From Alphaproteobacteria bacterium (GTDB lineage: Bacteria; Pseudomonadota; Alphaproteobacteria; UBA7887), in NCBI GenBank assembly GCA_965216755.1, contig CBDCGL010000011.1:224001-288000 (forward strand): a stretch of 64,000 bases of DNA, in the 5' to 3' direction. Made by a program: the position numbers and the translations under genes. Shown piece after piece: positions 12,460-37,309 of the stretch; the stretch's first letter is position 1; each line of letters begins with the position of its first letter. Below the pieces are notes generated by a model, which saw only the letters and a program-made list of their open reading frames with translations, made no database searches and was not told the DNA's origin.

Positions 12460-12485
12460 ATACGACTCAAGGAAGGGTAGGCTTC

Positions 12486-13202: not shown

Positions 13203-13330
13203 TGTCCGGCTATCAGCTCGGACCATCAATTTCGATCGTGCTGGGGTCGCCAAGGAAACGCCGCCTTGCTAGGTTATGGCCACGGACGCATGAGACTTAC
13301 AATTGCGAACAAGCCGGAAGGAGACCGCCA

Positions 13331-20147: not shown

Positions 20148-20245
20148 ATCGAATCCTGTTTCAAATGAGTCGCGCGTTTGAACTTGGGCGGGCTATGGTG
20201 GCCGATGTTCACGAAAGAGATCCGATTTTGCAATCGTAGGAAGCA

Positions 20246-21355
20246 ATGACCGATCGTCAGCCACCATTTCGTGCCGATCATGTTGGGAGTCTGCTCAGAC
20301 CGCCAGAATTGGTTGCGGCGCGCGCCAAGTTTGCGAGTGGTGCCTTAGACGCCGTCGCACTTCGCGCGGTTGAGGATCAATCCGTTGCGGCTGTTATTGT
20401 GAAGCAAGAGGCGGTCGGCTTGCGCGGAATCACCGATGGCGAATATCGTCGTTCTATGTGGCATTTCGACTTTTTGCGCGAATTCGATGGGGTTGAGGAA
20501 GTCACCGCGCCGCACGGCATAAAGTTTCAAGGCGACTTGGAGACCAAGCCTGTTGGGCTGCGGGTCAATGGCAGAATCACATATGGTGGCCACAGTTTCA
20601 TTGATGATTTTGATTTTGTGCGGTCGCGCACGCATCGCATCGCCAAGCAAACGATTCCATCTCCAAGCGTCTTGCATTTTCGCGGCGGCCGACCGGCGAT
20701 CAGTACCGCCACGTATCCGGACCTTGGACCGTTTTTTGCGGACCTTGGAAACGCGTTTGCTGATGTCGTTGAGGCCTTCGCCGACGCTGGCTGCCGCTAT
20801 TTGCAACTTGATGACACCAACTTCGCGTATCTATGCGATCCGGAACAATGTGAAGCATCCCGGGCGCGTGGCGACAACCCTGACGCGCTGCCAGCGATCT
20901 ATGCGAAGCTGATCAACGGCGCTCTGTCGACCCGACCAGCGGACATGCGCGTGACCATGCACCTATGCCGTGGAAATTTTCGATCCTCTTGGATTTCGTC
21001 AGGCGGATATGAGCCGGTCGCGGAATGCTTGTTCAACGATGTGAACGTCGATGGCTACTTTCTTGAATATGACAGTGATCGCGCCGGCAACTTTGAGCCA
21101 CTGCGATTCGTACCGAAAAACAAAGTCGTCGTGCTCGGTCTCATCACGTCAAAATCCGGCGCGCTTGAATCCCCCGACGTAATTCGGCGGCGTATCGATG
21201 AGGCAGCCAAGTTCGTACCACTCGATCAGATTTGCCTCAGTCCTCAATGTGGGTTTGCAAGCACCGAGGAGGGCAACTTGCTGACCGAAGATCAGCAGTG
21301 GCGTAAGCTTGACCTCACCGTACAGATCGCCGACGCTGTGTGGGGCGGCAATTAA
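20246..21355 (+). CDS. Cobalamin-independent methionine synthase II-like protein (single Meth_synt_2 domain)
   Basis: Motifs RADHVGSLLRP, TDGEYRR, HLCRGN, FLEYD and SPQCGFAS (Zn ligands). Confidence 0.9.
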   Translation: MTDRQPPFRADHVGSLLRPPELVAARAKFASGALDAVALRAVEDQSVAAVIVKQEAVGLRGITDGEYRRSMWHFDFLREFDGVEEVTAPHGIKFQGDLETKPVGLRVNGRITYGGHSFIDDFDFVRSRTHRIAKQTIPSPSVLHFRGGRPAISTATYPDLGPFFADLGNAFADVVEAFADAGCRYLQLDDTNFAYLCDPEQCEASRARGDNPDALPAIYAKLINGALSTRPADMRVTMHLCRGNFRSSWISSGGYEPVAECLFNDVNVDGYFLEYDSDRAGNFEPLRFVPKNKVVVLGLITSKSGALESPDVIRRRIDEAAKFVPLDQICLSPQCGFASTEEGNLLTEDQQWRKLDLTVQIADAVWGGN

Positions 21356-21371
21356 GACGGGGAGCACAGCC

Positions 21372-22049
21372 ATGCGGCCTCTTTCTTGCGCACGTCGCGC
21401 GTTGACCCGGCGGTCGATCTTGGGTGGCCTGACGGTCGGACTGGCCGCTGCGGCGGCATCACGCGTTGCCGGTGCCGCTTGCGGCGGGAATACGCCAAGG
21501 CAGGCCACGGGTCCATTTTATCCGCGGGTTATCAAGGAAGCCGATTGGGATTTGACCCATGTCGCGGGCGGCACCGGGCGCGCCGAAGGTTCGGTGATCG
21601 AGGTGGTCGGACAAGTTCGCGATGCCCAGTGCAGGCCCATCGCGGACGCTGTCGTTGAGGTTTGGCAAGCCAATGCCGCGGGCCGTTACGACCATCCCGC
21701 CGATCCCACTGATCGGCCATTGGATCCCAATTTTCAGTCATATGCGCGGCTGGTGGCGGATCGGAACGGTGAGTATCGATTCATCACCGTGAAACCCGGA
21801 CCCTATCCGCTTGGATTTGTCTCGGACGGTGCGGACGCCTGGCGCACACCCCACATTCACTTCAAGATCCATGGCGCGGTTGGTCAGAAATTGACCACGC
21901 AGATGTATTTCGCCGGCGAGGAACTAAACGAGACTGACATCTTGCTTCGGGATGTTCCGATCTCGCAACGCGCATTGCTCGTCGTGCCGTTCGACAGTGC
22001 AAGCGCCACCGGGCTGCCGCGCGGGCGCTTCGACGTGGCGCTGGCATAA
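21372..22049 (+). CDS. Intradiol ring-cleavage dioxygenase (protocatechuate 3,4-dioxygenase-like) with Tat signal
   Basis: Twin-arginine leader TRRSILGG; motifs GPFYP, EVWQANAAGRY.H, KPGPY and RTPHIHF (Fe ligands). Confidence 0.87.
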   Translation: MRPLSCARRALTRRSILGGLTVGLAAAAASRVAGAACGGNTPRQATGPFYPRVIKEADWDLTHVAGGTGRAEGSVIEVVGQVRDAQCRPIADAVVEVWQANAAGRYDHPADPTDRPLDPNFQSYARLVADRNGEYRFITVKPGPYPLGFVSDGADAWRTPHIHFKIHGAVGQKLTTQMYFAGEELNETDILLRDVPISQRALLVVPFDSASATGLPRGRFDVALA

Positions 22050-22083
22050 GGCCGGCCTCGGCCGCCGCCGGGTACGTCGGCTC

Positions 22084-24276
22084 ATGAAGTTGTTCTCCAA
22101 CCGGCATCGCCCTGTACATATGGGCGGCTATCCCCTTGAGCGGCTAAAGCGCGTGGGCCTGGACAAATTACGCGAAGGTCCGCGCGCATTCGAACCAGCT
22201 TCACGGGATGCCACGCTGCTCGGTTCGGTCGGTCAAGTGGACCGAATCTATCTGGAGTTGTTTGCCAAATACCGGGATGGTCCGGTGGCGCCGCGGCGCG
22301 CACCCATCGATGTTGACCCTGAAACTATCGCTCACGACCTGAAAGCGGCCGGGTACTTTCTTGATGCCACCATGATGGGGGCATGCGATCTGCCGCGCGA
22401 CGCGTGGGCCGTGGTGACTGCGGTTGACGCGGATCAACGTCACGCCTTGGTCGTACTTGTTGAGCATGGGCGACCTGTTGAAAGCGCGAATGCGGCATCG
22501 GCTTGGATCAAGAACAGCGACACCCTGCGTAGCACAATGCGGGCTCTCGAAATCGCCAATGTGCTGGCGGGCTATATTCGCAATCTCGGTTGGGGCGCCA
22601 AGTCCCATGCGGTCTCGTGTAGCGACGTCGACATCGACCGGCTCGTTGTGCGCAGCGGCTTGGGGGAATGGCAGCGCAATCGTGTCGTCAACCCATTTCT
22701 CGGCGACCGGTTTGCTGCGGCAATTGTCACGACGGTGTTGCCGATTGCACCCGACTTGCCGCTGGCACCACGGCGCCTGTGGGATCGCGGACCGGCGTTT
22801 TGGTTTGGTCTCGCTGGCGCTGTGCCGGAGCTTGAACGTCGTGACGAACGGCGCCGACCGTCCCATTGGAGCCGCTATCCAATGGAACGGATCAAAACGA
22901 AAGATCGCCCGACGACATTGATTATCGACGAAGAAGTGCCACGCGTATCCAAGCGCGCCGCGTTTTTCGAGCGCGCTTTGCGCGGCGACCTGGGACCAAA
23001 GGCGCAAGCCGAAAGGACCCGTTTTGCGGTCAAACACCCGTTGACTTTTGCCATGCGCGGCATGCAAGCCAGCATGGTGCCAATGCAAGACGGCCCGATC
23101 GCCCAGACACGAGCGCATGGAACAGACGACGCCGACGCTAACGCGCGCGCGGTCAAAGCGCTTTGTTATTGGATGGGCGTCGACCTGGCTGGTATCTGCG
23201 CGATTCCCCGGTATGCCTGGTTTTCGCACAAAGAAAACGGGACGCCGATCACCCCCTACCACAAGAACGCCATCGTAATTCTGATTGACCAGGGCTTCGA
23301 AACAATGGAAGGGGCTAGCGGTGATGATTGGATGTCGGGGTCGCAATCGATGCGTGGCTATATGCGTGGCGCCGAGATTACCGGAATTGTCGCCGAGCAC
23401 ATCCGCAGTCTTGGCTATGGCGCCCGCGCGCAAACCAACATTGACAGCGACGTCCTACATATCCCGCTCATTTTGCGGGCCGGCCTGGGCGAGATGAGCC
23501 GTATCGGCGAACTCGTGCTCAATCCTTATGTCGGACCACGTTTCAAGTCGGCGGCAATAACAACCGATTTGCCGCTAACCGCAGACAAGCCGATCGATTT
23601 TGGTCTCCAGGACATGTGCGCAAAGTGCAACAAATGTGCGCGGGAATGTCCCTGTGATGCGATTCCGTGGGGACACAAGATCATGTTCAATGGCTATGAG
23701 ACATGGAAACCCGATGTCGAACGCTGTGCGCGCTACCGACTCACCAATCCCAAGGGCGCCGCCTGTGGCCGCTGCATGAAAACATGCCCATACAATCATG
23801 AGGGCCTTCTATATCACCGTTTTTTCTTGTGGTTGGCGATACACATACCGGCGTTGCGCGGCTGGATCGCGCGACTAGACGATCGCATCGGCAACGGCCG
23901 TCGCAATTTGGTCAAGAAATGGTGGCGCGACCTCGAGTGGCATCGCGACGGATATGCGGTAACGCCACGGGGGGGTACCAATGCGCGGGATATCAATCTG
24001 ATGCGTAAGGTGGATCCTAGCAAACAGAAATTGGCACTCTACCCTGCTGACGCCATGCCGGTACCCAATGACACAAACCCGCAAATCGTCGATCGCAAAA
24101 GGGCTTTGGCGGCTGCCGCGCAGATCGAGTCGCCAGCCGAGGCAACGCGGCGGCGCGCGCAATATGGCGCCATGCCAAGCCAATATGTCGCCAGGCCACC
24201 GCATGCCGGCGGTCCGCGGGGGCCCGAAGTTGAGGCCGGGCGATCCGGACTTGCGGAACCTGTCACCAAGCGATGA
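22084..24276 (+). CDS. rdhA: Catabolic (non-respiratory) cobalamin-dependent reductive dehalogenase, NpRdhA-like
   Basis: N-terminus MKLFSNRHRPVHMGGYPLERL; duplicated B12 fold; DQGFETMEGASGDDW.S.SQSMRGYMRG; GLGEMSRIG; two 4Fe-4S motifs CAKCNKCARECP and C..CGRCMKTCP; no Tat signal. Confidence 0.92.
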   Translation: MKLFSNRHRPVHMGGYPLERLKRVGLDKLREGPRAFEPASRDATLLGSVGQVDRIYLELFAKYRDGPVAPRRAPIDVDPETIAHDLKAAGYFLDATMMGACDLPRDAWAVVTAVDADQRHALVVLVEHGRPVESANAASAWIKNSDTLRSTMRALEIANVLAGYIRNLGWGAKSHAVSCSDVDIDRLVVRSGLGEWQRNRVVNPFLGDRFAAAIVTTVLPIAPDLPLAPRRLWDRGPAFWFGLAGAVPELERRDERRRPSHWSRYPMERIKTKDRPTTLIIDEEVPRVSKRAAFFERALRGDLGPKAQAERTRFAVKHPLTFAMRGMQASMVPMQDGPIAQTRAHGTDDADANARAVKALCYWMGVDLAGICAIPRYAWFSHKENGTPITPYHKNAIVILIDQGFETMEGASGDDWMSGSQSMRGYMRGAEITGIVAEHIRSLGYGARAQTNIDSDVLHIPLILRAGLGEMSRIGELVLNPYVGPRFKSAAITTDLPLTADKPIDFGLQDMCAKCNKCARECPCDAIPWGHKIMFNGYETWKPDVERCARYRLTNPKGAACGRCMKTCPYNHEGLLYHRFFLWLAIHIPALRGWIARLDDRIGNGRRNLVKKWWRDLEWHRDGYAVTPRGGTNARDINLMRKVDPSKQKLALYPADAMPVPNDTNPQIVDRKRALAAAAQIESPAEATRRRAQYGAMPSQYVARPPHAGGPRGPEVEAGRSGLAEPVTKR

Positions 24277-25205
24277 GTCGTACGGCACTGATCGGGGTCG
24301 ATTGGGGAACCACGTCGTTTCGCGCCTATCGCATCGCCGACGACGGTGAGGTCCTGGAGGCACTCGAAGCGGCGCTTGGCATTTTAAGAGTCAGTGACCG
24401 CTCTTTCGAGAAGGCTTTCGAAGTCAAGCTTGAGTCGTGGCTCGATGCGGAGCCTTCGGCACCGATCTTGATCGCGGGCATGATCACAAGCCGGCAGGGG
24501 TGGATTGAAACCGACTATTTGCGTTGTCCCGCGGGTTGCGAGGAATTGGCGGCAGTATTGGCACGGTTGGAAACAAAGAGGGGTCGCAGGCTCCACTTTG
24601 TAACCGGGCTTACGACAGTCGACGCCGCCGGCATGCCTGATGTCATGCGTGGTGAGGAGACCCAAGTGGTCGGTGCCTGGGCCGATGATCGCCAAAGTGG
24701 CCTGGTGGTATTACCGGGAACCCATTCCAAGTGGGTTTTGATCGAAGGGGGCAAGATCGTGCGATTCGCCACATTCATGACCGGCGAAGTTTATGGGGCT
24801 CTCAAAGATCATACGATCTTGGGGCGCCTTATGACCGGCGATGTCGATGACGCTGCGGCGTTCAAACGCGGCGTGGACGATGGTTTTGACAATGATCCCG
24901 CGCGCGGCGGATTGCTACGGCGTCTGTTCGGGGTGCGTTCCCATGGGTTGGTCGGTAACATGTCCGGCGAAGTGTTGAGCAGCTATCTATCAGGTCTTCT
25001 AATCGGATCCGAAATCCGGGAAGCTTTGTCAGGCCTTGGGTCGCGGCTCGACAAGGGATTGGTGACCGTAATCGCGAGCGAGGCGTTGTTGCGGCGCTAT
25101 GCGCGGGCGCTCTCGTATCTCCAACGGTCATATGAACTGGTCGATGGCGATGCTTCGGCGCGCGGGCTTTACCGCATCGCCGGCGTTGCCAAGCTGTTCG
25201 GCTGA
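24273..25205 (+). CDS. dgoK: 2-dehydro-3-deoxygalactonokinase
   Basis: Motifs DWGTTSFRA, GMITSRQGW, DVMRGEETQ, PGTHSKW and TFMTGE; ATGA overlap with rdhA. Confidence 0.92.
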   Translation: MSRTALIGVDWGTTSFRAYRIADDGEVLEALEAALGILRVSDRSFEKAFEVKLESWLDAEPSAPILIAGMITSRQGWIETDYLRCPAGCEELAAVLARLETKRGRRLHFVTGLTTVDAAGMPDVMRGEETQVVGAWADDRQSGLVVLPGTHSKWVLIEGGKIVRFATFMTGEVYGALKDHTILGRLMTGDVDDAAAFKRGVDDGFDNDPARGGLLRRLFGVRSHGLVGNMSGEVLSSYLSGLLIGSEIREALSGLGSRLDKGLVTVIASEALLRRYARALSYLQRSYELVDGDASARGLYRIAGVAKLFG

Positions 25206-25217
25206 CGATAAGCGCGG

Positions 25218-25952
25218 TTAAATCAGGTCGGCGCGGCCGCCTTCGGCGTGCGAAATATCCTGTTCCGCAATCAGCGAAATGACGTCAAACGTGCGATCAA
25301 TATGCTGGCCCAACAATTTCGCGGCCTTGTCGCAGTCTTTGTCGAGTGTCGCCTCGTAAATCGCCTGGTGCTCCGCGTGAACATCGCGCGGCACAGACTT
25401 GTCTACCAATGCAAAGCGACGGTAACGCTCTGATTGTTGAAGCAGGATGTTTCGGAAGTACAGCAGCCAATTGTTGCGACACGCGGCTGTCAGCGCGCGA
25501 TGAAATGCCAGATTTCTCGCTTCCCACTCGTCGCTGACACCTTTTGCATCGTCCGCGAGACGTTCCTCCACCTTGGCGAGCCTATGATAAGCGGCAACGA
25601 CGTCTGCTTCCCATTCGTCGTCTCCATTCGTGATCGACTCGCGCAAAGCCTCCATTTCCAGCAACCGTCGCATGTCGGTGATGTCCTTGAGATCTGAGAG
25701 CGATAGCGGCGCCACGCGAAAGCCACGTTGACCTTCGGAAATCACCAAGGCATCGCCGACCAAGCGCAACAAAGCCTCGCGTAGCGTACTGGCGCCGATG
25801 CTATAGGAATCACGCAGCCGCTCGATTCGCAATTTGCTGCCTGGTTCTAGGGTCCCGTCCAAGATGTCGTGACGGATACGTTCATAAACCGACTCAACGA
25901 CGGTCTTGGTCACCCGCGTCGGTATTTCTTGAGTCTTTTGAGAAACGTTCAT
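25218..25952 (-). CDS. GntR/FCD family transcriptional regulator
   Basis: wHTH region (IRHDILDG.L.PGSKL...STLREAL, QRGFRV) plus FCD domain (NLAFHRAL, EHQAI); divergent from dmpK. Confidence 0.9.
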   Translation of the reverse strand: MNVSQKTQEIPTRVTKTVVESVYERIRHDILDGTLEPGSKLRIERLRDSYSIGASTLREALLRLVGDALVISEGQRGFRVAPLSLSDLKDITDMRRLLEMEALRESITNGDDEWEADVVAAYHRLAKVEERLADDAKGVSDEWEARNLAFHRALTAACRNNWLLYFRNILLQQSERYRRFALVDKSVPRDVHAEHQAIYEATLDKDCDKAAKLLGQHIDRTFDVISLIAEQDISHAEGGRADLI

Positions 25953-25995
25953 TCTGGGCTGCCGTTCGGTCGGTCTGACGATCACGAGAATGCTA

Positions 25996-26101
25996 CTCGA
26001 TTTTCGAGAATGAGCAACATAATTCGAAAATATATGAAATTTCATTAAAAACAAAAAATATCGAAATTTTCGTTGACAGACGATATCTGTGGGTGTGAAC
26101 T
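25996..26101. promoter_or_regulatory. Divergent gntR/dmpK control region with candidate operators and a sigma70-like promoter
   Basis: CTCGATTTTCGAG at 25996-26008 and TCGAAATTTTCG at 26061-26072; TTGACA at 26073, then 17 bp, then TGAACT; AT-rich. Confidence 0.5.
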
Positions 26102-26194
26102 CACCTCAACGCCTCGCGCAAGAAGGCCTGAAATTGACAACCACATATGTGCCGACAGGCCACAACGAGTTGTCAGCGTTGTAGGGGAAGAGGA

Positions 26195-26503
26195 ATGTCC
26201 GCGGTGGCTGCATGCCAAACCGAATGGGGCCGAGCCTTCATCAAAGTGACCGGTGTCCGTCGCGACCGTTTCGTCGAGTTCTCATTTTGGCTCAACGACG
26301 AAGATCTTAGCGTCGAACTTGTCATGCCTTATCCCGAATTCCAGGAATTCTGCAAAGCGCGGCAGGCGACCCTCGTGTCGCCTGACCAAGCGGCGCGGGT
26401 TCCATTTGAACAGCTTCAATGGCGCTTCCGGGAACCGCAAACCGATCCGACGCCCGAAGCCAAATCGCGTCAAGGACATGACCCAAGGGAGGATGTCTCG
26501 TGA
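26195..26503 (+). CDS. dmpK: Phenol hydroxylase assembly subunit P0
   Basis: FVEFSF.....LSVELVMP..EFQEFC; first gene of the operon. Confidence 0.85.
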   Translation: MSAVAACQTEWGRAFIKVTGVRRDRFVEFSFWLNDEDLSVELVMPYPEFQEFCKARQATLVSPDQAARVPFEQLQWRFREPQTDPTPEAKSRQGHDPREDVS

Positions 26504-27504
26504 CAATTGAAATCAAGACGCTGAGCCTGGAACCTCGGCGTCAGACTTATTCGCATATTGCACGCCGCTTTGGCAGCGACCGCCCGGCGTCGCGCTACGA
26601 AGAAGGTGTGCTCGATGTCCAGGCCACCGACCATTTTCACTATCGGCCCTTGTGGGCGCCGGAGTATGAGATTTTCGACGCACGCCGTACCGCGATCGAG
26701 ATGGCGGACTGGTACGAATTGCGCGATCCGCGCCAGCTGTATTACGCCACCTACTGCATTGCGCGTTCCGGACTCAACCAAGTCACTGAACAGAATTTCG
26801 CGTTTATCGAAAAACGCGACATGCTTGCCAGTATTGACAGCACTTGGTTGTCAACGGCCCAGGAATACCTCGTGCCGCTCCGCCACTACGAGTGGGGCGC
26901 GAACATGAACAGCAGCTTGATCGCCGATTGGGGATACGGCACTGCGCTTACGGCGGCGGCGATTTTCAGCGCCGGCGACCGTTTGGGCATGGCACAGATC
27001 CTGGGTCGTGTCGGTTTGGCCATCGACGGCAACAGCGGAACCTCACTCGACCAAGCGAAAGAAGCCTGGCTCACGGGCGCGCAGTGGCAGAAGCTGCGCC
27101 AATTGGTCGAAGACAGTTTCGTGGTGCAGGATTGGTTCGAGACGTTCGTTGCACAAAACCTGGCGATGGATGGCATCGTCCACCCGCTCGTCTTTGGCGT
27201 GTTTGACCGCACCGGGCAGGCTCATGGCGGAGCCGCCTTGTCGATGGTTTGCGAATTCATGCCGACCTGGTACGCCGACCAGTCGCGATGGGTCGATGCC
27301 GTTATCAAGCGCGCAGCCGCGGAATCGGCAGATAACAAATCCGCTTTGGAAAGCTGGTTGCAAACCTGGAGCGAACGCGCGATCGAGGCCGCGCAGCCGT
27401 TGGCACGACACGTGCTCGGCCAAGCCGGCGACGATGCAGTCTTTGGCCTTCGCGCCGATCTCAATGCCCGTGCCCAAAAACTGGGCTTGGATATCGGCTC
27501 GTAA
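26500..27504 (+). CDS. dmpL: Phenol hydroxylase beta subunit P1
   Basis: Motifs MTIEIKT, RRFG.DRPASRYEEG, FHYRPLW and DPRQLYY. Confidence 0.93.
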   Translation: MTIEIKTLSLEPRRQTYSHIARRFGSDRPASRYEEGVLDVQATDHFHYRPLWAPEYEIFDARRTAIEMADWYELRDPRQLYYATYCIARSGLNQVTEQNFAFIEKRDMLASIDSTWLSTAQEYLVPLRHYEWGANMNSSLIADWGYGTALTAAAIFSAGDRLGMAQILGRVGLAIDGNSGTSLDQAKEAWLTGAQWQKLRQLVEDSFVVQDWFETFVAQNLAMDGIVHPLVFGVFDRTGQAHGGAALSMVCEFMPTWYADQSRWVDAVIKRAAAESADNKSALESWLQTWSERAIEAAQPLARHVLGQAGDDAVFGLRADLNARAQKLGLDIGS

Positions 27505-27510
27505 AGGAGA

Positions 27511-27786
27511 GTGACGATGGCACGCAATGTATCCATTACGCTGCAAAACACGTCGGATGCCAGGCCAATTATCGAGGCCATCACGGAAGATAACCCGACG
27601 GCGGAAGTCAACAATTTTCCGGCGATGGTCAAGATCGACTGTCCGGCACGATTGGTGGTCCGGCGCGACAGCGTTGAGAACAAGATTGGTCGAGAATGGG
27701 ACCTGCAGGAGTTGCATCTCAGCCTGATCTCGCTGGCTGGCAATATCGACGAGGACGACGACGAGTTCGTCCTTGCTTGGAACTAG
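27511..27786 (+). CDS. dmpM: Phenol hydroxylase regulatory subunit P2
   Basis: Motifs IIEAI..DNP, PAMVKID and LISLAGNIDEDDD; start may be 27517. Confidence 0.92.
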   Translation: MTMARNVSITLQNTSDARPIIEAITEDNPTAEVNNFPAMVKIDCPARLVVRRDSVENKIGREWDLQELHLSLISLAGNIDEDDDEFVLAWN

Positions 27787-27801
27787 AGAAGGAGAGGCGC
27801 A

Positions 27802-29319
27802 ATGAGCACTCCTAAGAAACTGGGCCTCAAAAAGCGTTACGCGCTGATGACACGCGGCCTCGGTTGGGACACCACCTATCAACCGATGGATAAGGTGTTT
27901 CCCTACGACAAATTCGAAGGCATCAAGATCCATGATTGGGAGGCCTGGGAAGATCCGTTCCGGCTGACCATGGACGCATATTGGAAGTTCCAAGCCGAAA
28001 AGGAACGCAAGCTATACGCGGTAATCGACAGCTTTGCCCAGAACAACGGCCAGCTCGGGCTGACCGATGCCCGATACATCAACGCGGTCAAGCTATTCAT
28101 CACGGGCGTATCGCCATTGGAATACCAGGCGCATCGGCACTTCGCCCATATCGGGCGGCATCTCCGAGGTGTCGGGCCACGGATCGCGGGCCAAATGCAA
28201 TCGCTTGATGAATTGCGACATGCCCAAACGCAGATCCACACAATAAGTCACTACAACAAGTATTTCGACGGGATGCATGATTTCCGCCATATGCATGACC
28301 GCGTTTGGTACCTGTCGGTGCCAAAGTCGTTCTTTGACGATGCGGTCACCGCGGGCCCGTTTGAATTCATGACCTCGATTTCGTTTGCGTTCGAATATGT
28401 GCTGACCAACTTACTGTTTGTGCCGTTCATGTCCGGCGCGGCCTATAATGGTGACCTGGCCACCGTAACATTTGGTTTTTCGGCACAGTCCGATGAATCG
28501 CGCCACATGACGCTTGGTCTTGAGGTGATCAAGTTCATGCTTGAGCAGGACGAGGGCAATGTGCCGATCGTCCAGCGTTGGATCGACAAGTGGTTCTGGC
28601 GCGGCTACCGCCTGTTGTCGCTGGTCGGCATGATGATGGACTACATGCTGCCAAAGAAGATCATGTCTTGGTCAGAGGCCTGGGAGATGTATTTCGAGGA
28701 AGCCGGCGGCGCCCTGTTCGAAGATTTGGCACGCTATGGCATCCGTCCGCCGAAATATGCTGATGTGGCAAACAAAGAGAAATCTCGCATCTCGCATGAA
28801 GTCTGGGCAATCTTCTATCAATACACCCATGCAGCCGCGTTCCACACGTGGGACATCGATGACGAGCACAAGAATTGGCTGTCGGAGAAGTATCCGGAAA
28901 CGTTTGATCGCCACTATCGACCACGGCTCGACATGTGGGCGGATATGTCCAAACAGGGTCAACGTTACTACAACAACGCACTACCGCAATTGTGCACGAC
29001 CTGTCAGATCCCGATGGGCTTTACCGAACCCGACGATCCAACCACGATCTGCTTCCGGTCCAGCGAGTATAACGGTGACCGTTATCATTTCTGCTCGGAT
29101 GGCTGCAAGGACATATTCGACAATGAGCCGGAAAAATATGTCCAGTCTTGGTTGCCGGTGCATCAAATATTTCAAGGTAATTGTGGCGGTGCCGAGATCG
29201 GTGACGTCCTGAATTGGTACCACCTGAATCTTGGTACGGACAACATGGCCTACGAGGGTTCGCCGGAGCAAGAAATGTGGTCCCGGTGGGTCCGCGATCG
29301 GCAGAAGGTGGCCAGCTAA
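27802..29319 (+). CDS. dmpN: Phenol hydroxylase diiron alpha subunit P3
   Basis: WEDPFRLTMDAYW; two EXXH motifs (DELRH, DESRH); YHS-like FCSDGCK. Confidence 0.96.
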   Translation: MSTPKKLGLKKRYALMTRGLGWDTTYQPMDKVFPYDKFEGIKIHDWEAWEDPFRLTMDAYWKFQAEKERKLYAVIDSFAQNNGQLGLTDARYINAVKLFITGVSPLEYQAHRHFAHIGRHLRGVGPRIAGQMQSLDELRHAQTQIHTISHYNKYFDGMHDFRHMHDRVWYLSVPKSFFDDAVTAGPFEFMTSISFAFEYVLTNLLFVPFMSGAAYNGDLATVTFGFSAQSDESRHMTLGLEVIKFMLEQDEGNVPIVQRWIDKWFWRGYRLLSLVGMMMDYMLPKKIMSWSEAWEMYFEEAGGALFEDLARYGIRPPKYADVANKEKSRISHEVWAIFYQYTHAAAFHTWDIDDEHKNWLSEKYPETFDRHYRPRLDMWADMSKQGQRYYNNALPQLCTTCQIPMGFTEPDDPTTICFRSSEYNGDRYHFCSDGCKDIFDNEPEKYVQSWLPVHQIFQGNCGGAEIGDVLNWYHLNLGTDNMAYEGSPEQEMWSRWVRDRQKVAS

Positions 29320-29334
29320 CGGCATTGAATAATC

Positions 29335-29363
29335 GGGCGGCGCAAGTGACGTTCGCGCCGCCC
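29335..29363 (+). other. Intercistronic hairpin after dmpN
   Basis: GGGCGGCGC-N11-GCGCCGCCC. Confidence 0.5.
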
Positions 29364-29385
29364 CGGATCACCAGGGAGGGTCGAT

Positions 29386-29748
29386 ATGGCCGTCGTTGCA
29401 CTTCAAGAAAACTACAAGGGTGAAGTCCGAGACAGAATTGAGAACTTCCACGGGAATCAACTCGTCTATTTCCATTGGGAAGATCACCTTATGTTTTGCG
29501 CTGCCCTGGCATTTCCATTTCCACCCGATATGCCATTTGGCGCAGTGACTGGTGAGGTTTTGCCAACATTCTACGGACTGCATCCGGATTGGGACAACGT
29601 GGATTGGGCGATCGTCCGCTGGACTGTGGACGGCGCGCCCTTCACGCCGGATCCTAAGAAGAGCCTCAAAGATAACGGGATTTCGCACAAATCACTGCTG
29701 CGGTTTTGGACGCCTGGTTTAGAGGGCTACCAAGGCAGCAAGAGTTAG
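29386..29748 (+). CDS. dmpO: Phenol hydroxylase gamma subunit P4
   Basis: Motifs ENFHGNQL, WEDHLMFCA, PDMPFG and HKSLLRF.TPGL.G. Confidence 0.93.
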   Translation: MAVVALQENYKGEVRDRIENFHGNQLVYFHWEDHLMFCAALAFPFPPDMPFGAVTGEVLPTFYGLHPDWDNVDWAIVRWTVDGAPFTPDPKKSLKDNGISHKSLLRFWTPGLEGYQGSKS

Positions 29749-29780
29749 CGGCCCATACCGGCCATCGCGATGACTGAGGT

Positions 29781-30848
29781 GTGGCAATGCATAGTCTGAC
29801 AATAGAGCCAATTGGCGAGACGGTCGATGTTGCCGATGGTCAGAGCATTCTCGATGCCTGCTTGCGTGCGGGTGTGTGGCTGCCGCACGCGTGTTGCCAC
29901 GGACTTTGTGGCACGTGCAAGGTCGAGATATTGGACGGCGAGGTTGACCATCGCGATGCGTCGTCCTTTGCATTGATGGATTTCGAGCGCGACGAAGGCA
30001 AAACATTGGCGTGCTGCGGGACATTGGCGTCTGATGCTACGATTGAGGCTGAAATAGACGAGGATCCCGACGCCCAGTATTTTTCGGTACGGGATCATAG
30101 CGCCGCCGTCATTGCCTACGAAGACGTGACACCGGATGTGCGCGTGATACGATTACGGGTTGATGGCGACGGCGTGGCGTTTCAACCGGGGCAGTACATA
30201 AACCTTGAAGTCCCGGGTACCGACAAGCCGCGCGCATTTTCGATGGCGCAATCGCCTGGCGAACAAAACCGTATCGAGCTACATATCCGGCGTGTTGAAG
30301 GGGGCCAAGCCACGGGCTGGTTGCACAGCCACATTCAACTGGGGCAGAAGCTGTCTTTCTCAGGGCCGTATGGGCGCTTCTTCGTACGCAAATCCAAGGA
30401 GAAGCCGCTGTTGTTTCTCGCCGGCGGTTCAGGTCTGTCGTCACCAAAGTCCATGATACTGGATCTTCTCGAACAGGGCTGCACACAACCGATCACGCTG
30501 ATCCACGGCGTGCGGGGCCGGAAAGATCTTTATTGTGGGGCGTTGTTTGAGCGTTTGGCCCGAGAGCATGACAATCTTCGTTATGTGGCGGCGCTGTCTG
30601 CCCCGGATCCGAGCGACGACTGGTCCGGGGAGACCGGTTTTGTGCATGACGTTGCCGCCCGGCTCTTTGATGGCAAGTTCGCCGGCAGCGTCGCTTATCT
30701 ATGTGGCCCACCGCCGATGATCGAAGCGTGTATTCGCACATTGATGAAAGGTCGGCTTTTTGAGCGTGACATCTTCACAGAGAAGTTTGTCACCCTTGGC
30801 GACGGCGACGCGGCATTGGCACGCAGTCCGCTATTCAAACGCATATGA
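29781..30848 (+). CDS. dmpP: Phenol hydroxylase NADH reductase P5
   Basis: 2Fe-2S motif ACCHGLCGTCK; RAFS, AGGSGLSSPKSM, CGPPPM and C-terminal RSPLFKRI. Confidence 0.94.
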   Translation: MAMHSLTIEPIGETVDVADGQSILDACLRAGVWLPHACCHGLCGTCKVEILDGEVDHRDASSFALMDFERDEGKTLACCGTLASDATIEAEIDEDPDAQYFSVRDHSAAVIAYEDVTPDVRVIRLRVDGDGVAFQPGQYINLEVPGTDKPRAFSMAQSPGEQNRIELHIRRVEGGQATGWLHSHIQLGQKLSFSGPYGRFFVRKSKEKPLLFLAGGSGLSSPKSMILDLLEQGCTQPITLIHGVRGRKDLYCGALFERLAREHDNLRYVAALSAPDPSDDWSGETGFVHDVAARLFDGKFAGSVAYLCGPPPMIEACIRTLMKGRLFERDIFTEKFVTLGDGDAALARSPLFKRI

Positions 30849-30858
30849 GCGCCGCGCG

Positions 30859-31200: not shown

Positions 31201-31224
31201 CATTGATGGAAGGAGCGCAGTGAA

Positions 31225-32145
31225 ATGGCAATTACCGGAGTCCTACGGCCTGGGTTCGTACAAATTCGCGTCCTCGATATGGAAGAGGCCAAGAATCATT
31301 ACTGCCAGATTATGGGTCTTAAGGAGGTGAGCACGGGGGCCGACGGTCGCGTCTATCTTCGCGCGTCGGATGAATTCGATCGGCACAGCATCGTTCTCCG
31401 CGAGGCCGATGCGGCCGGTATGGATGTCATGGCATTCAAGGTTGCGCGAGATGCGGACCTCGACGATTTTTCGGCGCGCATTCGTGATTGGGGTGTCAGT
31501 GTCGATCAAGTGGAAGCCGGCGAACAACCTGGCGTCGGGCGGCGAATCGGTTTTGCAATTCCGAGCGGGCACCGCATCGAGCTTTATGCATCTATGGAAC
31601 AATCGCCAAATTGCCCACAAACGACCAATCCAGAAGTTTGGCAAGACCCGCCCGCCGGTATGAAGATCAACCGCTTCGACCACTGCCTCCTCTACGGACC
31701 AAATATTCCCGAAGTCACACGCTTTTTCGAAGAGGCGTTGGACTTTGCCTTGGCTGAGAAAGTCGACACGCCGGATGGCACGATCGCGGTTTGGCTCACA
31801 TGCTCAAACAAGGCGCATGACGTAGCGTTCGTCAATCATGAGGAACCAAATAAATTCCACCACGCCGCATTCATGCTGGAAGATTGGAACGACATCGGCT
31901 ATGCCGCGGACATCATGGCGCGCTACGACGTGTCGATCGACATCGGCCCGACCAGGCATGGCATCACGCGCGGTCAGACGATCTACTATTTCGATCCGTC
32001 CGGCAATCGCAACGAAGTGTTCGCTGGCGGCTATTTCTACTATCCGGACAACCCGACCCGGACTTGGACCGCCGACAAACTCGGCAAGGGCATTTTCTAT
32101 TATGAGCGTGAGCTCAACGACCGATTTCTGGGCGTCGTAACATAG
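31225..32145 (+). CDS. dmpB: Catechol 2,3-dioxygenase
   Basis: Motifs GVLRPG, FDHCLLYG, KFHHAAF and GPTRHGITRGQTIYYFDPSGNRNE. Confidence 0.95.
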   Translation: MAITGVLRPGFVQIRVLDMEEAKNHYCQIMGLKEVSTGADGRVYLRASDEFDRHSIVLREADAAGMDVMAFKVARDADLDDFSARIRDWGVSVDQVEAGEQPGVGRRIGFAIPSGHRIELYASMEQSPNCPQTTNPEVWQDPPAGMKINRFDHCLLYGPNIPEVTRFFEEALDFALAEKVDTPDGTIAVWLTCSNKAHDVAFVNHEEPNKFHHAAFMLEDWNDIGYAADIMARYDVSIDIGPTRHGITRGQTIYYFDPSGNRNEVFAGGYFYYPDNPTRTWTADKLGKGIFYYERELNDRFLGVVT

Positions 32146-32164
32146 CTTGCTCAACGGTTTTTCG

Positions 32165-32204
32165 GGGGCGGTGAACCTGCAAAGCAGGGCAACCGCCCCT
32201 TTAT
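32165..32204 (+). terminator. Hairpin / possible intrinsic terminator or attenuator after dmpB
   Basis: GGGGCGGT...CCTGC-AAA-GCAGG...ACCGCCCC followed by TTTAT. Confidence 0.5.
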
Positions 32205-32260
32205 AGACGCAATGTTCGGTGGCCGACTCGCCTAGCGATCGCCGAAGAGGATGATGTGTG

Positions 32261-33757
32261 ATGTCTGAATTAGCGACGGCTGATTTGGCCGAGGAATCGC
32301 TTGGCCGTGTCTCAAATTTCATAAACGGCGCGTATTCATCAGCGCCGGGTCGTTCGTTCAAAAATGTGAGTCCGGTAGACGGACGCACGGTTTCCTTGGT
32401 CGAAGAAGCGTCGGCGGCCGACGTTGATCGTGCGGTCGAAGCGGCGCGCGCGGCATTGTCGGGGGACTGGGCACATCTGTCGGTTGCGAATAGATCGCAG
32501 CTTCTGCATCGTGTCGCAGAAGAAATCGAACGACGCTTTGACGCGTTTCTGGAAGCCGAGATTGCGGATACAGGAAAACCGCGCAGCTTGGCCGCGACGA
32601 TCGACATTCCGCGCGGTGCCGCCAACTTCAAAGTGTTTGCCGACATGGTCAAGAACGTGCCGTCGGAAACGTTCGAGATGGCAACCCCAGATGGCCGTGG
32701 CGCGTTGAACTACGCCGTCCGGGTTCCCAAAGGTGTCATCGGCGTCATATGCCCATGGAACCTGCCGCTACTGCTCATGACGTGGAAGGTGGGGCCGGCG
32801 CTGGCTTGCGGCAATACCGTTGTTGTTAAGCCGTCAGAGGAGACGCCGTCCACGGCAACATTGCTCGGTGAAGTCATGAACAGCGTCGGCGTTCCGCGCG
32901 GCGTCTACAATGTCATCCATGGATTTGGGCCGAATTCGGCCGGTGAGTTCCTGACCCGACATCCTGGCGTTGACGCAATAACGTTCACAGGTGAGACGCG
33001 GACCGGCGAGGCAATTATGGCCGCGGCGGCAAAAGGGGTCCGCGACGTGTCGTTTGAGCTGGGTGGCAAGAACGCGGCGATCGCTTTTGCGGACTGCGAT
33101 CTCGACGCGGCGTTGGAGGGGACGGCCCGATCGGCGTTCGCCAATTGCGGGCAGGTTTGCCTCGGCACGGAGCGCGTCTATGTTGAACGACCGCTCTTTG
33201 AGAAGTTTGTCGCCGGCTTAGCCGATCGGGCACGCGCGTTGAAGCCCGGTGCGCCATTCGACTCGGATACGAACCTTGGTCCCCTCATCAGCCGAGAGCA
33301 TAGAGACAAAGTTCTGTGCTATTACGAAAGAGCGGTACGCGATGGCGCGACCGTCGTAACCGGTGGCGGCACCCCGCAAATGCCTCCCAATTTGGTGCAT
33401 GGGGCCTGGGTCGAACCGACCATTTGGACCGGCCTGCCAGACGATTCACCGGTCATTCGAGAAGAGATATTTGGGCCTTGCTGCCATATCCGGCCATTCG
33501 ATACCGAACAAGAAGCGATCGATTTGGCGAACGATACGCCGTATGGTTTGGCATCGGCAATTTGGACTGGCAATCTTGGCCGTGGGCACCGTGTGGCGCG
33601 TCAGGTCCATGTTGGGATCACGTGGGTGAACAGTTGGTTCTTGCGTGACTTGCGTACGCCGTTTGGTGGCGCCAAGCAGTCGGGCATCGGCCGAGAGGGC
33701 GGCGTTCACTCTTTGGAGTTCTATACCGAATTGCGCAATGTCTGCGTGAAGCTTTGA
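32261..33757 (+). CDS. dmpC: 2-hydroxymuconic semialdehyde dehydrogenase
   Basis: Motifs PWNLPLLLMTWK, FTGETRTG, FELGGKN, GQVCL and WFLRDLRTPFGG. Confidence 0.95.
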   Translation: MSELATADLAEESLGRVSNFINGAYSSAPGRSFKNVSPVDGRTVSLVEEASAADVDRAVEAARAALSGDWAHLSVANRSQLLHRVAEEIERRFDAFLEAEIADTGKPRSLAATIDIPRGAANFKVFADMVKNVPSETFEMATPDGRGALNYAVRVPKGVIGVICPWNLPLLLMTWKVGPALACGNTVVVKPSEETPSTATLLGEVMNSVGVPRGVYNVIHGFGPNSAGEFLTRHPGVDAITFTGETRTGEAIMAAAAKGVRDVSFELGGKNAAIAFADCDLDAALEGTARSAFANCGQVCLGTERVYVERPLFEKFVAGLADRARALKPGAPFDSDTNLGPLISREHRDKVLCYYERAVRDGATVVTGGGTPQMPPNLVHGAWVEPTIWTGLPDDSPVIREEIFGPCCHIRPFDTEQEAIDLANDTPYGLASAIWTGNLGRGHRVARQVHVGITWVNSWFLRDLRTPFGGAKQSGIGREGGVHSLEFYTELRNVCVKL

Positions 33758-33767
33758 GGCAAACCGA

Positions 33768-34562
33768 ATGGCAATTGATTCGTCAAAAGTTGAAATAGCT
33801 GCGCGCCAGCTGCGCGTCGCCGCGGAACAGGGCGAGCCCTGCGATCCGGTTCGGGCGTTGATCGGCGATGACAATCTTGGCGCCGCGTACGCCGTTCAAG
33901 ATTTGAACACGGCCGCCGCGATCGAGAACGGGCGGCGCCTGGTCGGGCGCAAGATCGGGCTGACGGCCAAGGTCGTGCAGGCACAGTTCAACGTCGACAG
34001 CCCCGACTACGGCATGTTGTTTGCCGATATGGATGTGCCGGAGGGCGAGGAAATTCCGTGGCGAGGATTGATGCAACCCAAGGCGGAAGCAGAGATCGCT
34101 TTTGTCCTCGGTGCCGACCTCGACCAGGAACAGCTCACAAGCGCGGATGCCATGAACGCAATTGCGTATGCGGTCGCCGCGATCGAAATCGTCGACAGTC
34201 GGATCAAGGATTGGCAGATCGGGATCACCGATACCGTTGCCGACAACGCGTCCGCCGGCCTCTTCGTACTGGGCAATCAGCCCCGGAAGCTGGGCGAGTT
34301 CGATCCCAGATTGTGCGGCATGGTTATGGAATGTCGCGGCGAACCGATTTCGGTCGGTGCAGGTGTTGCCTGTTTGGGGAGCCCGATTAGTTCCGCACTT
34401 TGGCTTGCCAAGATGATGGCCAAGGTGGGGCGCCCGCTAGCCGCGGGTGATATCATCTTGTCGGGCGCACTCGGACCGATGGCGCCGATCTCGCCTGGCG
34501 ATGTCATTGAGACGCGCATCTCCGGTCTTGGCTCGGTACGTGCCGCATTTTCCTGGGATTAA
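33768..34562 (+). CDS. dmpE: 2-oxopent-4-enoate hydratase
   Basis: Motifs [29 protein letters not shown] and SGALGPM. Confidence 0.9.
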
Positions 34563-34566
34563 GGCT

Positions 34567-35505
34567 ATGAAGACAAAAGTTGCTATCATCGGCTCCGGAA
34601 ATATCGGCACCGATCTGATGATCAAGATATTGCGCACGTCAAATACGCTAGACGTGGCCGCCATGGTCGGGATTGATCCGCAGTCCGATGGGTTGGCGCG
34701 CGCCGCCCGCATGGGTGTCGCCACCACTGACAAAGGCGTCGACGGCCTTCTCGCCATGCCGGTGTTTCACGACGTGCGCATCGTGTTCGACGCGACATCG
34801 GCGCGCGCCCACGCGCGACACAGTGAAGTTTGCCTTAACCATGGCAAGCAGATGATCGATTTGACGCCGGCGGCGATCGGCCCCTATGTCGTACCCGTGG
34901 TCAATATGACCGCACATTTCGACAAACCCAATCTCAATATGGTTACATGCGGTGGCCAAGCAACTATTCCTATGGTTGCGGCGGTGCGTCGGGTTGCCAC
35001 ACGCGTCCCCTATGCTGAGATCGTGGCGTCGATTTCATCACGCTCTGCCGGCCCAGGTACGCGGGCCAACATTGACGAATTCACGCAAACCACGGCCCGC
35101 GGCATCGAGACCGTGGGTGGCGCTGAACGCGGCAAGGCAATCATTGTTCTCAATCCGGCCGAGCCGCCGATGATTATGCGCGACAGCGTATTCGTTTTGA
35201 GTGAGGGCGCCGAACCGGAACAGATCGACGAGTCAATTGCCGCGATGGTCGAAGACGTCCAGGCCTATGTGCCAGGATACCGACTCAAACAGGATGTTCA
35301 GTTCGAGCGTATTGGCAACAACCAGCCGATCCGTATTCCAGACTTCGGCGAGTTTTCTGGCTTGAAAGCGTCAGTTTTTCTTGAGGTTGAAGGCGCGGGT
35401 CATTATCTGCCTAACTATGCTGGAAATCTCGATATCATGACGTCGGCGGCCCTGAAGACCGCTGAGAATTTCGTCGCCATGCATTTGGCTGGAGAAGCCG
35501 CATGA
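34567..35505 (+). CDS. dmpF: Acetaldehyde dehydrogenase (acylating)
   Basis: Motifs [34 protein letters not shown] and YAGNLDIMT. Confidence 0.95.
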
Positions 35506-36542
35506 CAAATTCCAATCGGCCCGGGCGAAAGCTCTATATCCAAGATGTCACCTTGCGCGATGGTATGCACGCGATCCGCCACCAATACGGCATTGATCAC
35601 GTCCGGGCGATCGCGCGTGCGCTAGACGATGCAAGAGTCGACAGCACGGAAGTTGCGCATGGCGATGGACTTTCCGGATCAAGTTTCAACTATGGGTTTG
35701 GCGCCCATACGGATTGGGAATGGATCGAGGCGGTTGCCGATGAATTGAGTTACACGAAGCTCGCGACATTGTTAATTCCGGGCATTGGGACCGTCGAGGA
35801 CTTGGACCGCGCTTATGGTCACGGCGTTCGCTCGGTTCGTGTGGCGACACATTGCACCGAAGCGGATATTTCGAAGCAGCATATCGAACACGCGCGTGAT
35901 CTCGGCATGGATGTCGCCGGGTTCTTGATGATGGCGCACATGATCCCCGGCAAAGAGCTCGCCAAGCAAGCCAAGCTCATGGAAACTTATGGCGCGCATT
36001 GCGTCTATGTCACCGATAGTGGCGGCGCTCTTTTGCTGGACGATGTTGCGGAACGTTTTGACGCCTACAACGATGTTCTCAAGCCCGAGACCGAACGGGG
36101 GATCCACGCCCACCACAATCTCAGTTTTGGTGTCGCAAACTCCGTGATCGCTGTTGAACATGGCGCCATTCGGGTTGACGCATCTTTGGCGGGAATGGGC
36201 GCTGGTGCGGGCAACGCGCCGTTAGAGGTCTTCATTGCAGTTGCTGAGCGCATGGGCTGGGATCACGGCTGCGATCTCTACAAGATCATGGATGCCGCCG
36301 ACGAACTGGTGCGACCGTTACAGGACCGCCCGGTCCGTGTAGATCGCGAGACCTTGGCGTTGGGCTATGCCGGCGTCTACTCCAGTTTCTTGCGCCACGC
36401 GGAACGGGCGTCTGAGATGTACGGCATCGATACGCGCGAAATTTTGGTGGAACTCGGCCGCCGGCGCATGGTCGGTGGGCAGGAGGATATGATCGTTGAC
36501 GTGGCGCTTGATCTCGTGAAGCAAAAAGAAGCCGTGGCATGA
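35502..36542 (+). CDS. dmpG: 4-hydroxy-2-oxovalerate aldolase
   Basis: Motifs [29 protein letters not shown] and VGGQEDMI. Confidence 0.95.
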
Positions 36543-37309
36543 CCGATCTGGCAAGACTAGCCGAACAAGTCGATGAGGCCGCCCGTGCGGCAACGGCGAT
36601 TCCGCAACTCACCCACAACACACCGCTTACGGGCGACGACGGCTACGCGATCCAGGCCTTGTCGATGGCGCGACGCTATGCCCGTGGCGAACGACGGATC
36701 GGTGTTAAGATGGGGTTGACCAGCCGCGCGAAGATGGTGCAAGTCGGCGTTGACGAAGCGGTGTGGGGGCGGCTGACCGATGCCATGCGCATTGACGATG
36801 GCGGACGTGTTTCGATGACAAGTTACGTCCACCCGCGCGTTGAACCAGAAGTCGCTTTTCTCATGAAACGGCCACTTGCCGGGAATGTGAGTGCGGCGGA
36901 AGCGATGGATGCGGTCGAGGCCATTGCGCCGGCAATGGAAATAATTGATTCCCGATACGAGAATTTCAAATTCACACTGGCGGATGTGGTTGCCGACAAT
37001 TCGTCGTCGTCGGGGTTTGTGGTCGGCAATTGGCGATCGCCCGATCTCGACATATCCAACCTGGGCATGGTCTTGGAATTCGATGGCCGACCGGTACAAA
37101 TTGGATCATCGGCGGCAATTTTGGGTCATCCTGTGCGATCTCTGGTGGCTGCCGCGCGGGCCGTGGCACGCTGGGGCGAGCAACTTGAAAAGGGATGGAT
37201 TGTTCTGGCGGGTGCCGCCACCGCGGCCCAGCCACTCGTGGCGGGCGTGTCGGTGCGCGCGGATGTGGAGAGCCTGGGTCGCGTCGCGTTTGATGTTTTG
37301 CCACAATGA
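36539..37309 (+). CDS. dmpH: 4-oxalocrotonate decarboxylase
   Basis: Motifs [29 protein letters not shown] and ADNSSS. Confidence 0.9.

Follow-up and report, generated by a model that had tools for sequence, protein, structure and literature searches.

A stand-alone reductive dehalogenase gene beside a phenol hydroxylase operon: probably two independent modules made neighbours in one alphaproteobacterial lineage

The window analysed here, a stretch of 64,000 nucleotides at positions 224001-288000 of contig C11, belongs to an alphaproteobacterial genome (G000) of 5.0 Mb that is 99.8% complete. In this window rdhA, the gene of a reductive dehalogenase (RdhA), lies close to dmpKLMNOPQBCEFGH, an operon encoding a multicomponent phenol hydroxylase and a meta-cleavage pathway. 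The two are most probably independent modules that were made neighbours in one lineage by rearrangement, a reading to which a probability of about 0.72 was assigned. An earlier sequence-only reading had proposed a dedicated halophenol pathway, in which RdhA would remove the halogens before the phenol is oxidised. The gene identities of that proposal were upheld and its chemistry is plausible, whereas the lack of linkage, the convergent genes and an operator that is present at dmpK only speak against a dedicated pathway. The comparative evidence does not support a functional rdhA-dmp pairing, and no description of such a pairing was found in the literature searched, which mostly did not include subscription papers.

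Gene order at the junction and linkage across genomes

The genes and control elements of the region are given below in window coordinates. The dmpKLMNOP genes (26195..30848) were called by PF06099, PF02332 (twice), PF02406, PF04663 and reductase models.

20246..21355, plus strand: metE2, a MetE2-type cobalamin-independent methionine-synthase-like gene of the PRK06520 subfamily (NF005085, 530 bits, cut-off 313)
21372..22049, plus strand: intradiol dioxygenase (PF00775) with a twin-arginine-like N-terminus
22084..24276, plus strand: rdhA, encoding an NpRdhA-type catabolic reductive dehalogenase of 730 aa, stand-alone and not fused
24273..25205, plus strand: dgoK, 2-keto-3-deoxygalactonokinase (PF05035, 303 bits)
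25218..25952, minus strand: gntR, GntR/FCD regulator, AphS/BphS-like by position and operator
26056..26069, no strand assigned: predicted operator of the AphS/BphS type, differing from the published 14-bp palindrome at one position
26073-26078: -35-like hexamer, 3 bp after the operator, of a putative sigma-70 promoter without a consensus -10
26195-26503, plus strand: dmpK, first gene of the multicomponent phenol hydroxylase set
26500-27504, plus strand: dmpL
27511-27786, plus strand: dmpM
27802-29319, plus strand: dmpN
29386-29748, plus strand: dmpO
29781-30848, plus strand: dmpP
30859-31200, plus strand: dmpQ, 2Fe-2S ferredoxin (PF00111)
31225-32145, plus strand: dmpB, catechol 2,3-dioxygenase (TIGR03211, 422 bits, cut-off 320)
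32258-33757, plus strand: dmpC, dehydrogenase branch of the meta pathway
33768-34562, plus strand: dmpE
34567-35505, plus strand: dmpF
35502-36542, plus strand: dmpG
36539-37309, plus strand: dmpH

The metE2 gene opens a tight plus-strand run in which the dioxygenase gene, rdhA and dgoK follow with gaps of 16, 34 and -4 bp. The dgoK stop faces the gntR stop tail-to-tail across a gap of 12 bp, and the 1.9 kb from the rdhA stop to the dmpK start contain dgoK and the minus-strand gntR only. The distance of about 2 kb reported in the sequence-only reading was thus confirmed, as was the order of the dmp genes, gene by gene. Since the rdhA run is convergent on gntR, no shared transcript is possible for rdhA and dmp.

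The adjacency itself is real. In run X2, one contig covers positions 19243-38999 with 1 differing letter compared to the window, and in run X3, from another sample of the same study, one contig covers 19243-27643 with 0 differing letters. Altogether the junction was crossed gap-free by single contigs from three runs and two samples, which may include the source data of the assembly; contigs of this kind speak against an assembly artefact.

The synteny search, set beforehand as a refutation test of the proposed pathway, gave no linkage in the rdhA loci (0/80), in the dmp loci (0/80), in the family relatives with RdhA (0/7) or in the other genomes that carry both genes (0/4). On the rdhA side, the comparison took in the top 80 of 423 RdhA relatives from species-representative genomes, with at least 6 kb of downstream sequence in 50 and of upstream sequence in 47. 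No dmpK-H gene was detected in these loci except for a generic aldehyde dehydrogenase match (32-39% identity, 4 loci); dgoK and the intradiol dioxygenase were each present in 0/80, and the window GntR query resulted in 1 match with 26% identity. On the dmp side, rdhA was absent from the loci of the top 80 of 127 metagenomic DmpL relatives; 44 of the 80 had at least 2.3 kb and 36 at least 4.5 kb of upstream sequence.

Co-occurrence within genomes was also low. DmpN was detected in 1/80 genomes carrying the best RdhA relatives, many of which are incomplete metagenome-assembled genomes (MAGs). Among the 22 other genomes of the host family in the collection used, 7 had RdhA and none of these 7 had DmpN; the only DmpN match of the family, at 32% identity, came from a genome without RdhA. 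DmpN was likewise found in 0/19 other genomes of the order that are at least 85% complete. In a class sample of 400 genomes, RdhA was present in 36 (fused forms included), DmpN in 10 and both in 2, compared to 0.9 expected (Fisher p 0.22, kin not being independent). In the family of a Hydrogenophaga genome, 14/401 genomes had RdhA; of the 13 among them that were newly tested, one had DmpN, and its RdhA match contains 4 stops. All four other genomes with both genes (G023, G155, G444, G702) have rdhA and dmp on different contigs, and in G155 the two genes are far from the ends of their contigs, which measure 420 and 562 kb. Eight plasmid records matched RdhA; the four inspected were fused forms with no phenol hydroxylase genes listed within 10-14 kb. 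Two broken-looking rdhA genes were noted during these comparisons, one split over two frames in G011 (L104, C1 1809420-1811587) and one with 4 internal stops in G702 (C19).

The gene order around rdhA is scrambled. In the complete genome G011, rdhA, dgoK and the dioxygenase gene are at 1.81, 2.27 and 2.54 Mb, respectively. The dgoA gene adjoins dgoK in 10/11 family loci and is about 380 kb away in G000. Homologues of the dioxygenase occur in 18/22 family genomes without fixed neighbours, and beside rdhA in 0/11 loci fetched from relatives. Clustering of open reading frames (ORFs) over the 80 rdhA loci, confounded by antisense ORFs, yielded, apart from RdhA, clusters of at most 9 loci. An acyl-CoA ligase was rejected as a conserved neighbour of rdhA, being a generic match (12/80 loci, 24-37% identity); the ligase beside the closest rdhA relatives is DmdB-like, and its orthologue lies elsewhere in G000. 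The sole echo of the window run among the 80 loci came from one unrelated MAG, whose rdhA is preceded at 170 bp by a metE2 fragment (L030:3-167; 65% over 55 aa). G155 has a metE2 gene (48% identity) 5 kb past gntR, with other genes in between, which was judged coincidental.

Several observations weigh against two independent modules. The chance of two given genes being within 5 kb on a 4.85-Mb chromosome is about 0.2%. Only four other genomes were found with both genes, which gives low power to detect a rare real cluster. Incomplete MAGs make up most of the comparison set, and the two gene-bearing contigs of G444 are short. Conservation would also be missing if the cluster were young and selected, and co-occurrence in the class sample lies a little over expectation (odds ratio 2.6, not significant). 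The dmp genes are within 1.2 standard deviations of the genome mean in GC at third codon positions (GC3), and neither GC nor GC3 breaks at the module, so composition gives no support for recent transfer of dmp. A regulator other than the window GntR could co-induce the rdhA run and dmp. Galactose degradation genes are mentioned beside cytosolic rdhA-like genes in PMC12219181, a remark that is not reproduced by dgoK in 0/80 rdhA loci.

In the favoured reading of two independent modules, rdhA would encode a solitary cytoplasmic dehalogenase with B12 and two [4Fe-4S] clusters, common to the closest relatives of the host family, and gntR with dmpK-H would be a self-contained phenol module, separately acquired. 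The simplest history would have RdhA present first and dmp arriving separately, although the order is conjectural. RdhA would receive its electrons from a ferredoxin or flavodoxin system not linked to it; in the closest RdhA relatives, which have no DmpN match, the donor must be other than DmpP/DmpQ. The RdhA products would pass to PobA and the Pca enzymes as 4-hydroxybenzoates or, incidentally, to Dmp as phenol.

Further features of the window and genome were observed beside these genes. The window intradiol dioxygenase, which has a twin-arginine-like leader and Tyr/Tyr/His/His motifs, differs from PcaH/PcaG of the genome, encoded elsewhere, and is 58-59% identical to a paralogue at C11:3551138-3551788. 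At window positions 11740-14851, two tandem Sua5/YrdC-like genes (weak PF01300) are followed by a gene for a 506-aa protein without a Pfam match, beside hydantoinase A/B genes.

The RdhA protein and its probable substrates

The earlier description of the protein as an NpRdhA-like RdhA with two 4Fe-4S motifs and without a twin-arginine (Tat) peptide, rdhB anchor or fused reductase was borne out by profile, fold, motifs and ORF calls. The score against TIGR02486 was 182 bits (cut-off 160), and phmmer matched residues 1-690 to 4RAS with an E value of 3e-200, the N-terminal vestigial domain included. The rdhA ORF can also be called as a longer frame of 774 aa from 21952; the start at 22084 aligns with residue 1 of NpRdhA. 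The AlphaFold2 model (pLDDT 89, built on a 51-row alignment) was matched to 4RAS by Foldseek with TMq 0.91, TMt 0.95 and 47% identity. Both cluster motifs, C512-x2-C515-x2-C518-x3-C522 and C548...C561-x2-C564-x3-C568, are invariant in 51/51 aligned rows. No twin arginine was found in the first 60 residues and no strongly hydrophobic segment in the protein (peak 19-residue hydropathy 1.6). No small ORF for an rdhB-like anchor was called in the flanks of rdhA, where the upstream gene is 34 bp away and the downstream gene overlaps by 4 bp. A C-terminal reductase domain was not found, as RdhA ends about 40 residues past the NpRdhA match; four fused plasmid RdhAs carry C-terminal tails of 332-384 aa. 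Judged by sequence and model, the window RdhA is a genuine stand-alone NpRdhA-type reductive dehalogenase. A self-sufficient RdhA of the BhbA type was ruled out for the window protein, which has neither the reductase tail nor clustering with hydroxybenzoate/protocatechuate genes.

Residues were numbered by alignment to NpRdhA, and the two numberings coincide from residue 405. S422, M423, Y426, N452, K488 and R552 are identical in both proteins and the equivalents of F290, F291 and F310 are kept, while A419 is replaced by G, P311 by A and K307 by R (R311 in the window protein). In NpRdhA, S422, Y426, K488 and R552 are assigned to phenolate binding and proton donation (PMC7565698). By homology, S422, K488 and R552 of the window RdhA would hold an ortho-halophenolate with its halogen in contact with cobalt, and Y426 would donate the proton. 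The residues were surveyed in 90 loci, of which L031, L034, L105 and L107 were dropped (fewer than 560 residues covered) and 4 fused forms were counted apart, resulting in 82 non-fused relatives. S422, Y426, K488 and R552 were invariant in 82/82. Glycine at the position of NpRdhA Ala419, in the second-halogen pocket, was also present in all 82 (L003-L082), and basic R at the K307 position in 67. The Gly419 clade spans Alphaproteobacteria, freshwater Burkholderiales and Acidimicrobiia without a fixed gene neighbourhood.

Since the catalytic residues are kept, the window RdhA very probably acts as an ortho-halophenol dehalogenase. Published work describes ortho-halophenol specificity for catabolic RdhAs (PMC10463259), as well as the suicide inactivation of catechol 2,3-dioxygenase by 3-chlorocatechol and the origin of the suicide 3-halocatechol from 2-halophenol (PMC3975901), in agreement with the background on which the sequence-only reading had drawn. 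By analogy with characterised enzymes, RdhA most likely removes ortho bromine or iodine from compounds of the 2,6-dihalophenol type, including 3,5-dibromo-4-hydroxybenzoate. The conserved residues, as aligned, do not separate simple halophenols from halogenated 4-hydroxybenzoates as substrates. PMC13440307 was set aside as an RdhA precedent, as TfdB/TcsC and not RdhA are used there.

The recommended RdhA phylogeny was built, in a tree that contained no NpRdhA sequence. The window protein grouped with three RdhAs of a sister genus and one further alphaproteobacterial MAG (support 100), and none of these four genomes has DmpN. The nearest relatives are uncultured alphaproteobacterial MAGs. BhbA is 40% identical to the window RdhA and is on a separate branch (support 100). 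G000 also encodes a second, short RdhA-like protein of 336 aa (L002:1207-2217, C11 at about 3.852 Mb), with 101 bits against TIGR02486 (cut-off 160) and 56 bits against QueG, which by its sequence is possibly of the short cytosolic type.

The dmp operon and its control

Catechol 2,3-dioxygenase, 2-hydroxymuconic semialdehyde dehydrogenase, DmpF and DmpG scored over the NCBIfam cut-offs, and DmpE and DmpH were below the equivalog cut-offs. The meta-pathway genes (dmpQ, B, C, E, F, G, H) lead down to pyruvate and acetyl-CoA through the dehydrogenase branch only. The genes dmpD, dmpI and dmpR are not in the dmp run of the window. In G000, the PF01361 tautomerase was not found, with the same model matching 6/14 controls, and the DmpD-like query gave only weak matches of 26-39% identity away from dmp. 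A CF600-type meta route without dmpD suits phenol and p-cresol, not o- or m-cresol. As read from its genes, the dmp module would take phenol, and probably p-cresol, via catechol to pyruvate and acetyl-CoA by the dehydrogenase branch.

Directly after dmpH, a gene of a PAS-HAMP-MCP chemoreceptor was observed on the minus strand in three pieces (41738-42166, 39766-40353 and 37352-38194). The chemoreceptor region (37352-42166) is split by an IS481-type element, of which the genome has five near-identical full copies, and by a single-copy DDE/DUF772 transposase.

The gntR gene is divergent from dmpK. Its homologues, 49-58% identical, occupy the same place in L108, L111, L155, L226 and L228 and stand beside dmpR in L102, L139 and L224, which indicates that gntR belongs to the dmp module. 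With the AphS/BphS palindrome consensus of PMC6449761, 4 sites with 1 mismatch were obtained in 4.85 Mb, and the one between gntR and dmpK was the sole hit among the 1,733 intergenic regions that are 80-400 bp long. With as many as 3 mismatches allowed, the pattern gave 8 matches compared to 5.2 expected; therefore, weight was given to the 1-mismatch site only. The best matches before metE2, the dioxygenase gene, rdhA and dgoK had 5-7 mismatches. The scan for the sigma-70 consensus resulted in 6 sites compared to 9.7 expected, none of them at dmpK, and the terminator scan was at chance level. As the -10 consensus is lacking and the promoter was not called, a sigma-70 factor at dmpK is a supposition. 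A -24/-12 (sigma-54) box was not found in the gntR-dmpK spacer. An AphS/BphS-type repressor bound beside the -35 box would keep dmp off until it is released by an inducer.

The same layout was detected elsewhere. The gntR gene faces dmpK directly in the window, L108, L111, L226 (G061) and L228 (G411), and in all five loci an AphS box with 1-2 mismatches is a few bases from a -35-like sequence in a spacer without a -24/-12 box. XylR_N (PF06505) was not found in G000, G061 and G411; it was found in the dmp genomes G023, G155, G209, G357 and G067. As G061 and G411 share a genus and the L108 and L111 loci are almost the same, the loci amount to about three independent repressor-only cases. Among the 42 metagenome dmp loci with at least 3 kb upstream, DmpR was present in 28 and GntR in 4. 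Taken together, the operators and the missing activator genes make it fairly probable that the dmp operon is under an AphS/BphS-type repressor alone, without a DmpR/sigma-54 activator, in a layout shared by four other loci. No description of a phenol hydroxylase operon controlled only by a GntR repressor was found in the literature searched, again mostly without subscription papers.

Competing readings and comparison with known systems

The strongest alternative concerns the substrate and is compatible with two independent modules. Physiologically, RdhA may act on halogenated 4-hydroxybenzoates, with PobA and the protocatechuate ortho pathway as the drain, a proposal that is tentative but has odds only somewhat below even. 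The window protein retains a basic residue where NpRdhA has K307, which forms a salt bridge to the carboxylate at the active-site entrance; however, that contact was seen in a non-productive pose. The presence of pobA, pcaH, pcaG, pcaB and pcaD in G000 provides a sink of the BhbA kind for halo-4-hydroxybenzoates, but pobA (C11, 1.43 Mb) is 1.18 Mb from rdhA (0.25 Mb), with pcaHG at 1.86 Mb. PobA-like matches were obtained in 23 of the first 40 rdhA genomes (14 over the cut-off) compared to DmpN in 1/40, a count that need not be an enrichment over the background frequency of pobA. Of the genomes of the four closest RdhAs, G422, G423 and G441 gave no PobA match and G460 gave one. The fused RdhA of plasmid pOM-1 adjoins pobA and protocatechuate genes and BhbA of pBHB adjoins protocatechuate 4,5-dioxygenase genes, in keeping with the earlier statement that BhbA-type RdhAs feed hydroxybenzoate/protocatechuate routes.

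A metabolic hand-over between RdhA and Dmp may take place. In its unselected form, RdhA would act on simple bromo- or iodophenols and Dmp would consume the phenol without any genetic coupling. This, too, agrees with independent modules, and we regard it as possible but doubtful. Both modules look intact in one almost complete genome, and JtRdhA converts 2-iodophenol at 72% and 2,4,6-triiodophenol at 66% of its best rate (PMC10463259). On the other hand, 79/80 close rdhA genomes have no DmpN match, which indicates that phenol oxidation is not the usual sink for RdhA products.

It is unlikely that the two modules already form a recently assembled working pathway, in which RdhA beside an incoming repressor-only dmp operon fully debrominates 2-bromo- and 2,6-dibromophenol and a halocatechol-sensitive meta pathway can thereby mineralise natural bromophenols. 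The electrons of RdhA would then possibly be drawn from DmpP/DmpQ. If true, this would be the first stand-alone catabolic RdhA with an identified route through phenol and not through hydroxybenzoate.

The original proposal of a pathway under selection and common regulation, with RdhA removing ortho halogens to leave phenol for Dmp and so sparing catechol 2,3-dioxygenase from poisoning by 3-halocatechols, is improbable. In its favour are the real adjacency, the full set of RdhA catalytic residues and the cobalamin synthesis cluster of the host, in which models over the cut-off identified cobU/P, cbtA, cobB, cobA, cbiD, cobK, cobJ, cobI, cbiE/T, cobH, cbiB, cobQ and cobO. From known chemistry, 2,6-dihalophenols would block both ortho positions for a phenol 2-hydroxylase. 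The best PDB match of DmpB was XylE (1MPY, 327 bits) compared to 263 bits for 5ZNH, and XylE-type enzymes are halocatechol-sensitive. Against the proposal, linkage was seen in no comparison, transcription is convergent and the rdhA run is not preceded by an AphS box. The para halogen of 2,4,6-tribromophenol would remain with ortho-specific enzymes. NpRdhA is about five times slower on a monobrominated substrate (PMC7565698), and for JtRdhA and Ros_A3X954 the reported product of 2,6-dibromophenol is 2-bromophenol (PMC13101508, Table 1), the precursor of the suicide catechol. Ros_A3X954 is of a shorter RdhA type (motifs at 283-345) and therefore bears on the window RdhA by analogy only.

That metE2, the dioxygenase gene, rdhA and dgoK form a functional unit with RdhA feeding the adjacent intradiol dioxygenase is very unlikely. 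The tight gaps suggest one transcript, and the L030 fragment and the galactose genes of PMC12219181 are consistent with such a unit, but the dioxygenase and dgoK were missing from all 80 rdhA loci and scattered in the family genomes, and the dioxygenase has a Tat-like leader whereas RdhA has none. A chimeric assembly, conceivable for a genome that, like its MAG relatives, was presumably assembled from an uncultured organism, is hardly credible with the gap-free contigs across the junction.

With the reading of two independent modules preferred, the consequences are as follows. If the pairing were functional after all, stand-alone catabolic RdhAs, which are without a known partner or route, would gain a physiological role in the aerobic turnover of bromophenols. 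The RdhA clade in which the glycine at the second-halogen pocket never varies is uncharacterised and a reasonable target of a substrate screen, and the phenol hydroxylase operon that is apparently run by an AphS/BphS-type repressor alone is a useful remaining result. The RdhA and dmp modules each belong to a known type of system.

The window RdhA is comparable over its whole length with the fold of NpRdhA of Nitratireductor pacificus pht-3B (PDB 4RAS, 6ZXU, 6ZXX, 6ZY1), which also has no Tat peptide and no reductase fusion; it differs from NpRdhA by G419, the alanine at the P311 position and the arginine at the K307 position. With BhbA (Comamonas sp. 7D-2, plasmid pBHB) and JtRdhA it shares the catabolic RdhA core and the Y/K/R catalytic residues, but the C-terminal reductase of these enzymes is absent. 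BhbA, the published case of dehalogenation followed by oxidation, is clustered with protocatechuate genes and a transporter, whereas the window rdhA adjoins a non-conserved phenol/meta operon.

The dmp gene order corresponds to dmpKLMNOPQBC...EFGH of the Pseudomonas sp. CF600 operon and to that of the aph genes of Comamonas testosteroni TA441. In contrast to CF600 dmp and TA441 aph, the window genome has no dmpD, dmpI, XylR/DmpR match or -24/-12 box. In TA441, too, the gene of the GntR repressor AphS points away from those of the hydroxylase and a matching operator is present (PMC6449761), but AphS works there jointly with the sigma-54 activator AphR. The repressor-operator logic of the window dmp resembles that of BphS of Acidovorax sp. 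KKS102, a GntR repressor that shares its operator family with AphS. At the BphS operator RNA polymerase is blocked, and the repressor comes off in response to an intermediate of meta cleavage (PMC10282184). In KKS102 the controlled genes are those of biphenyl dioxygenase, whereas in the window they are apparently those of a multicomponent phenol hydroxylase.

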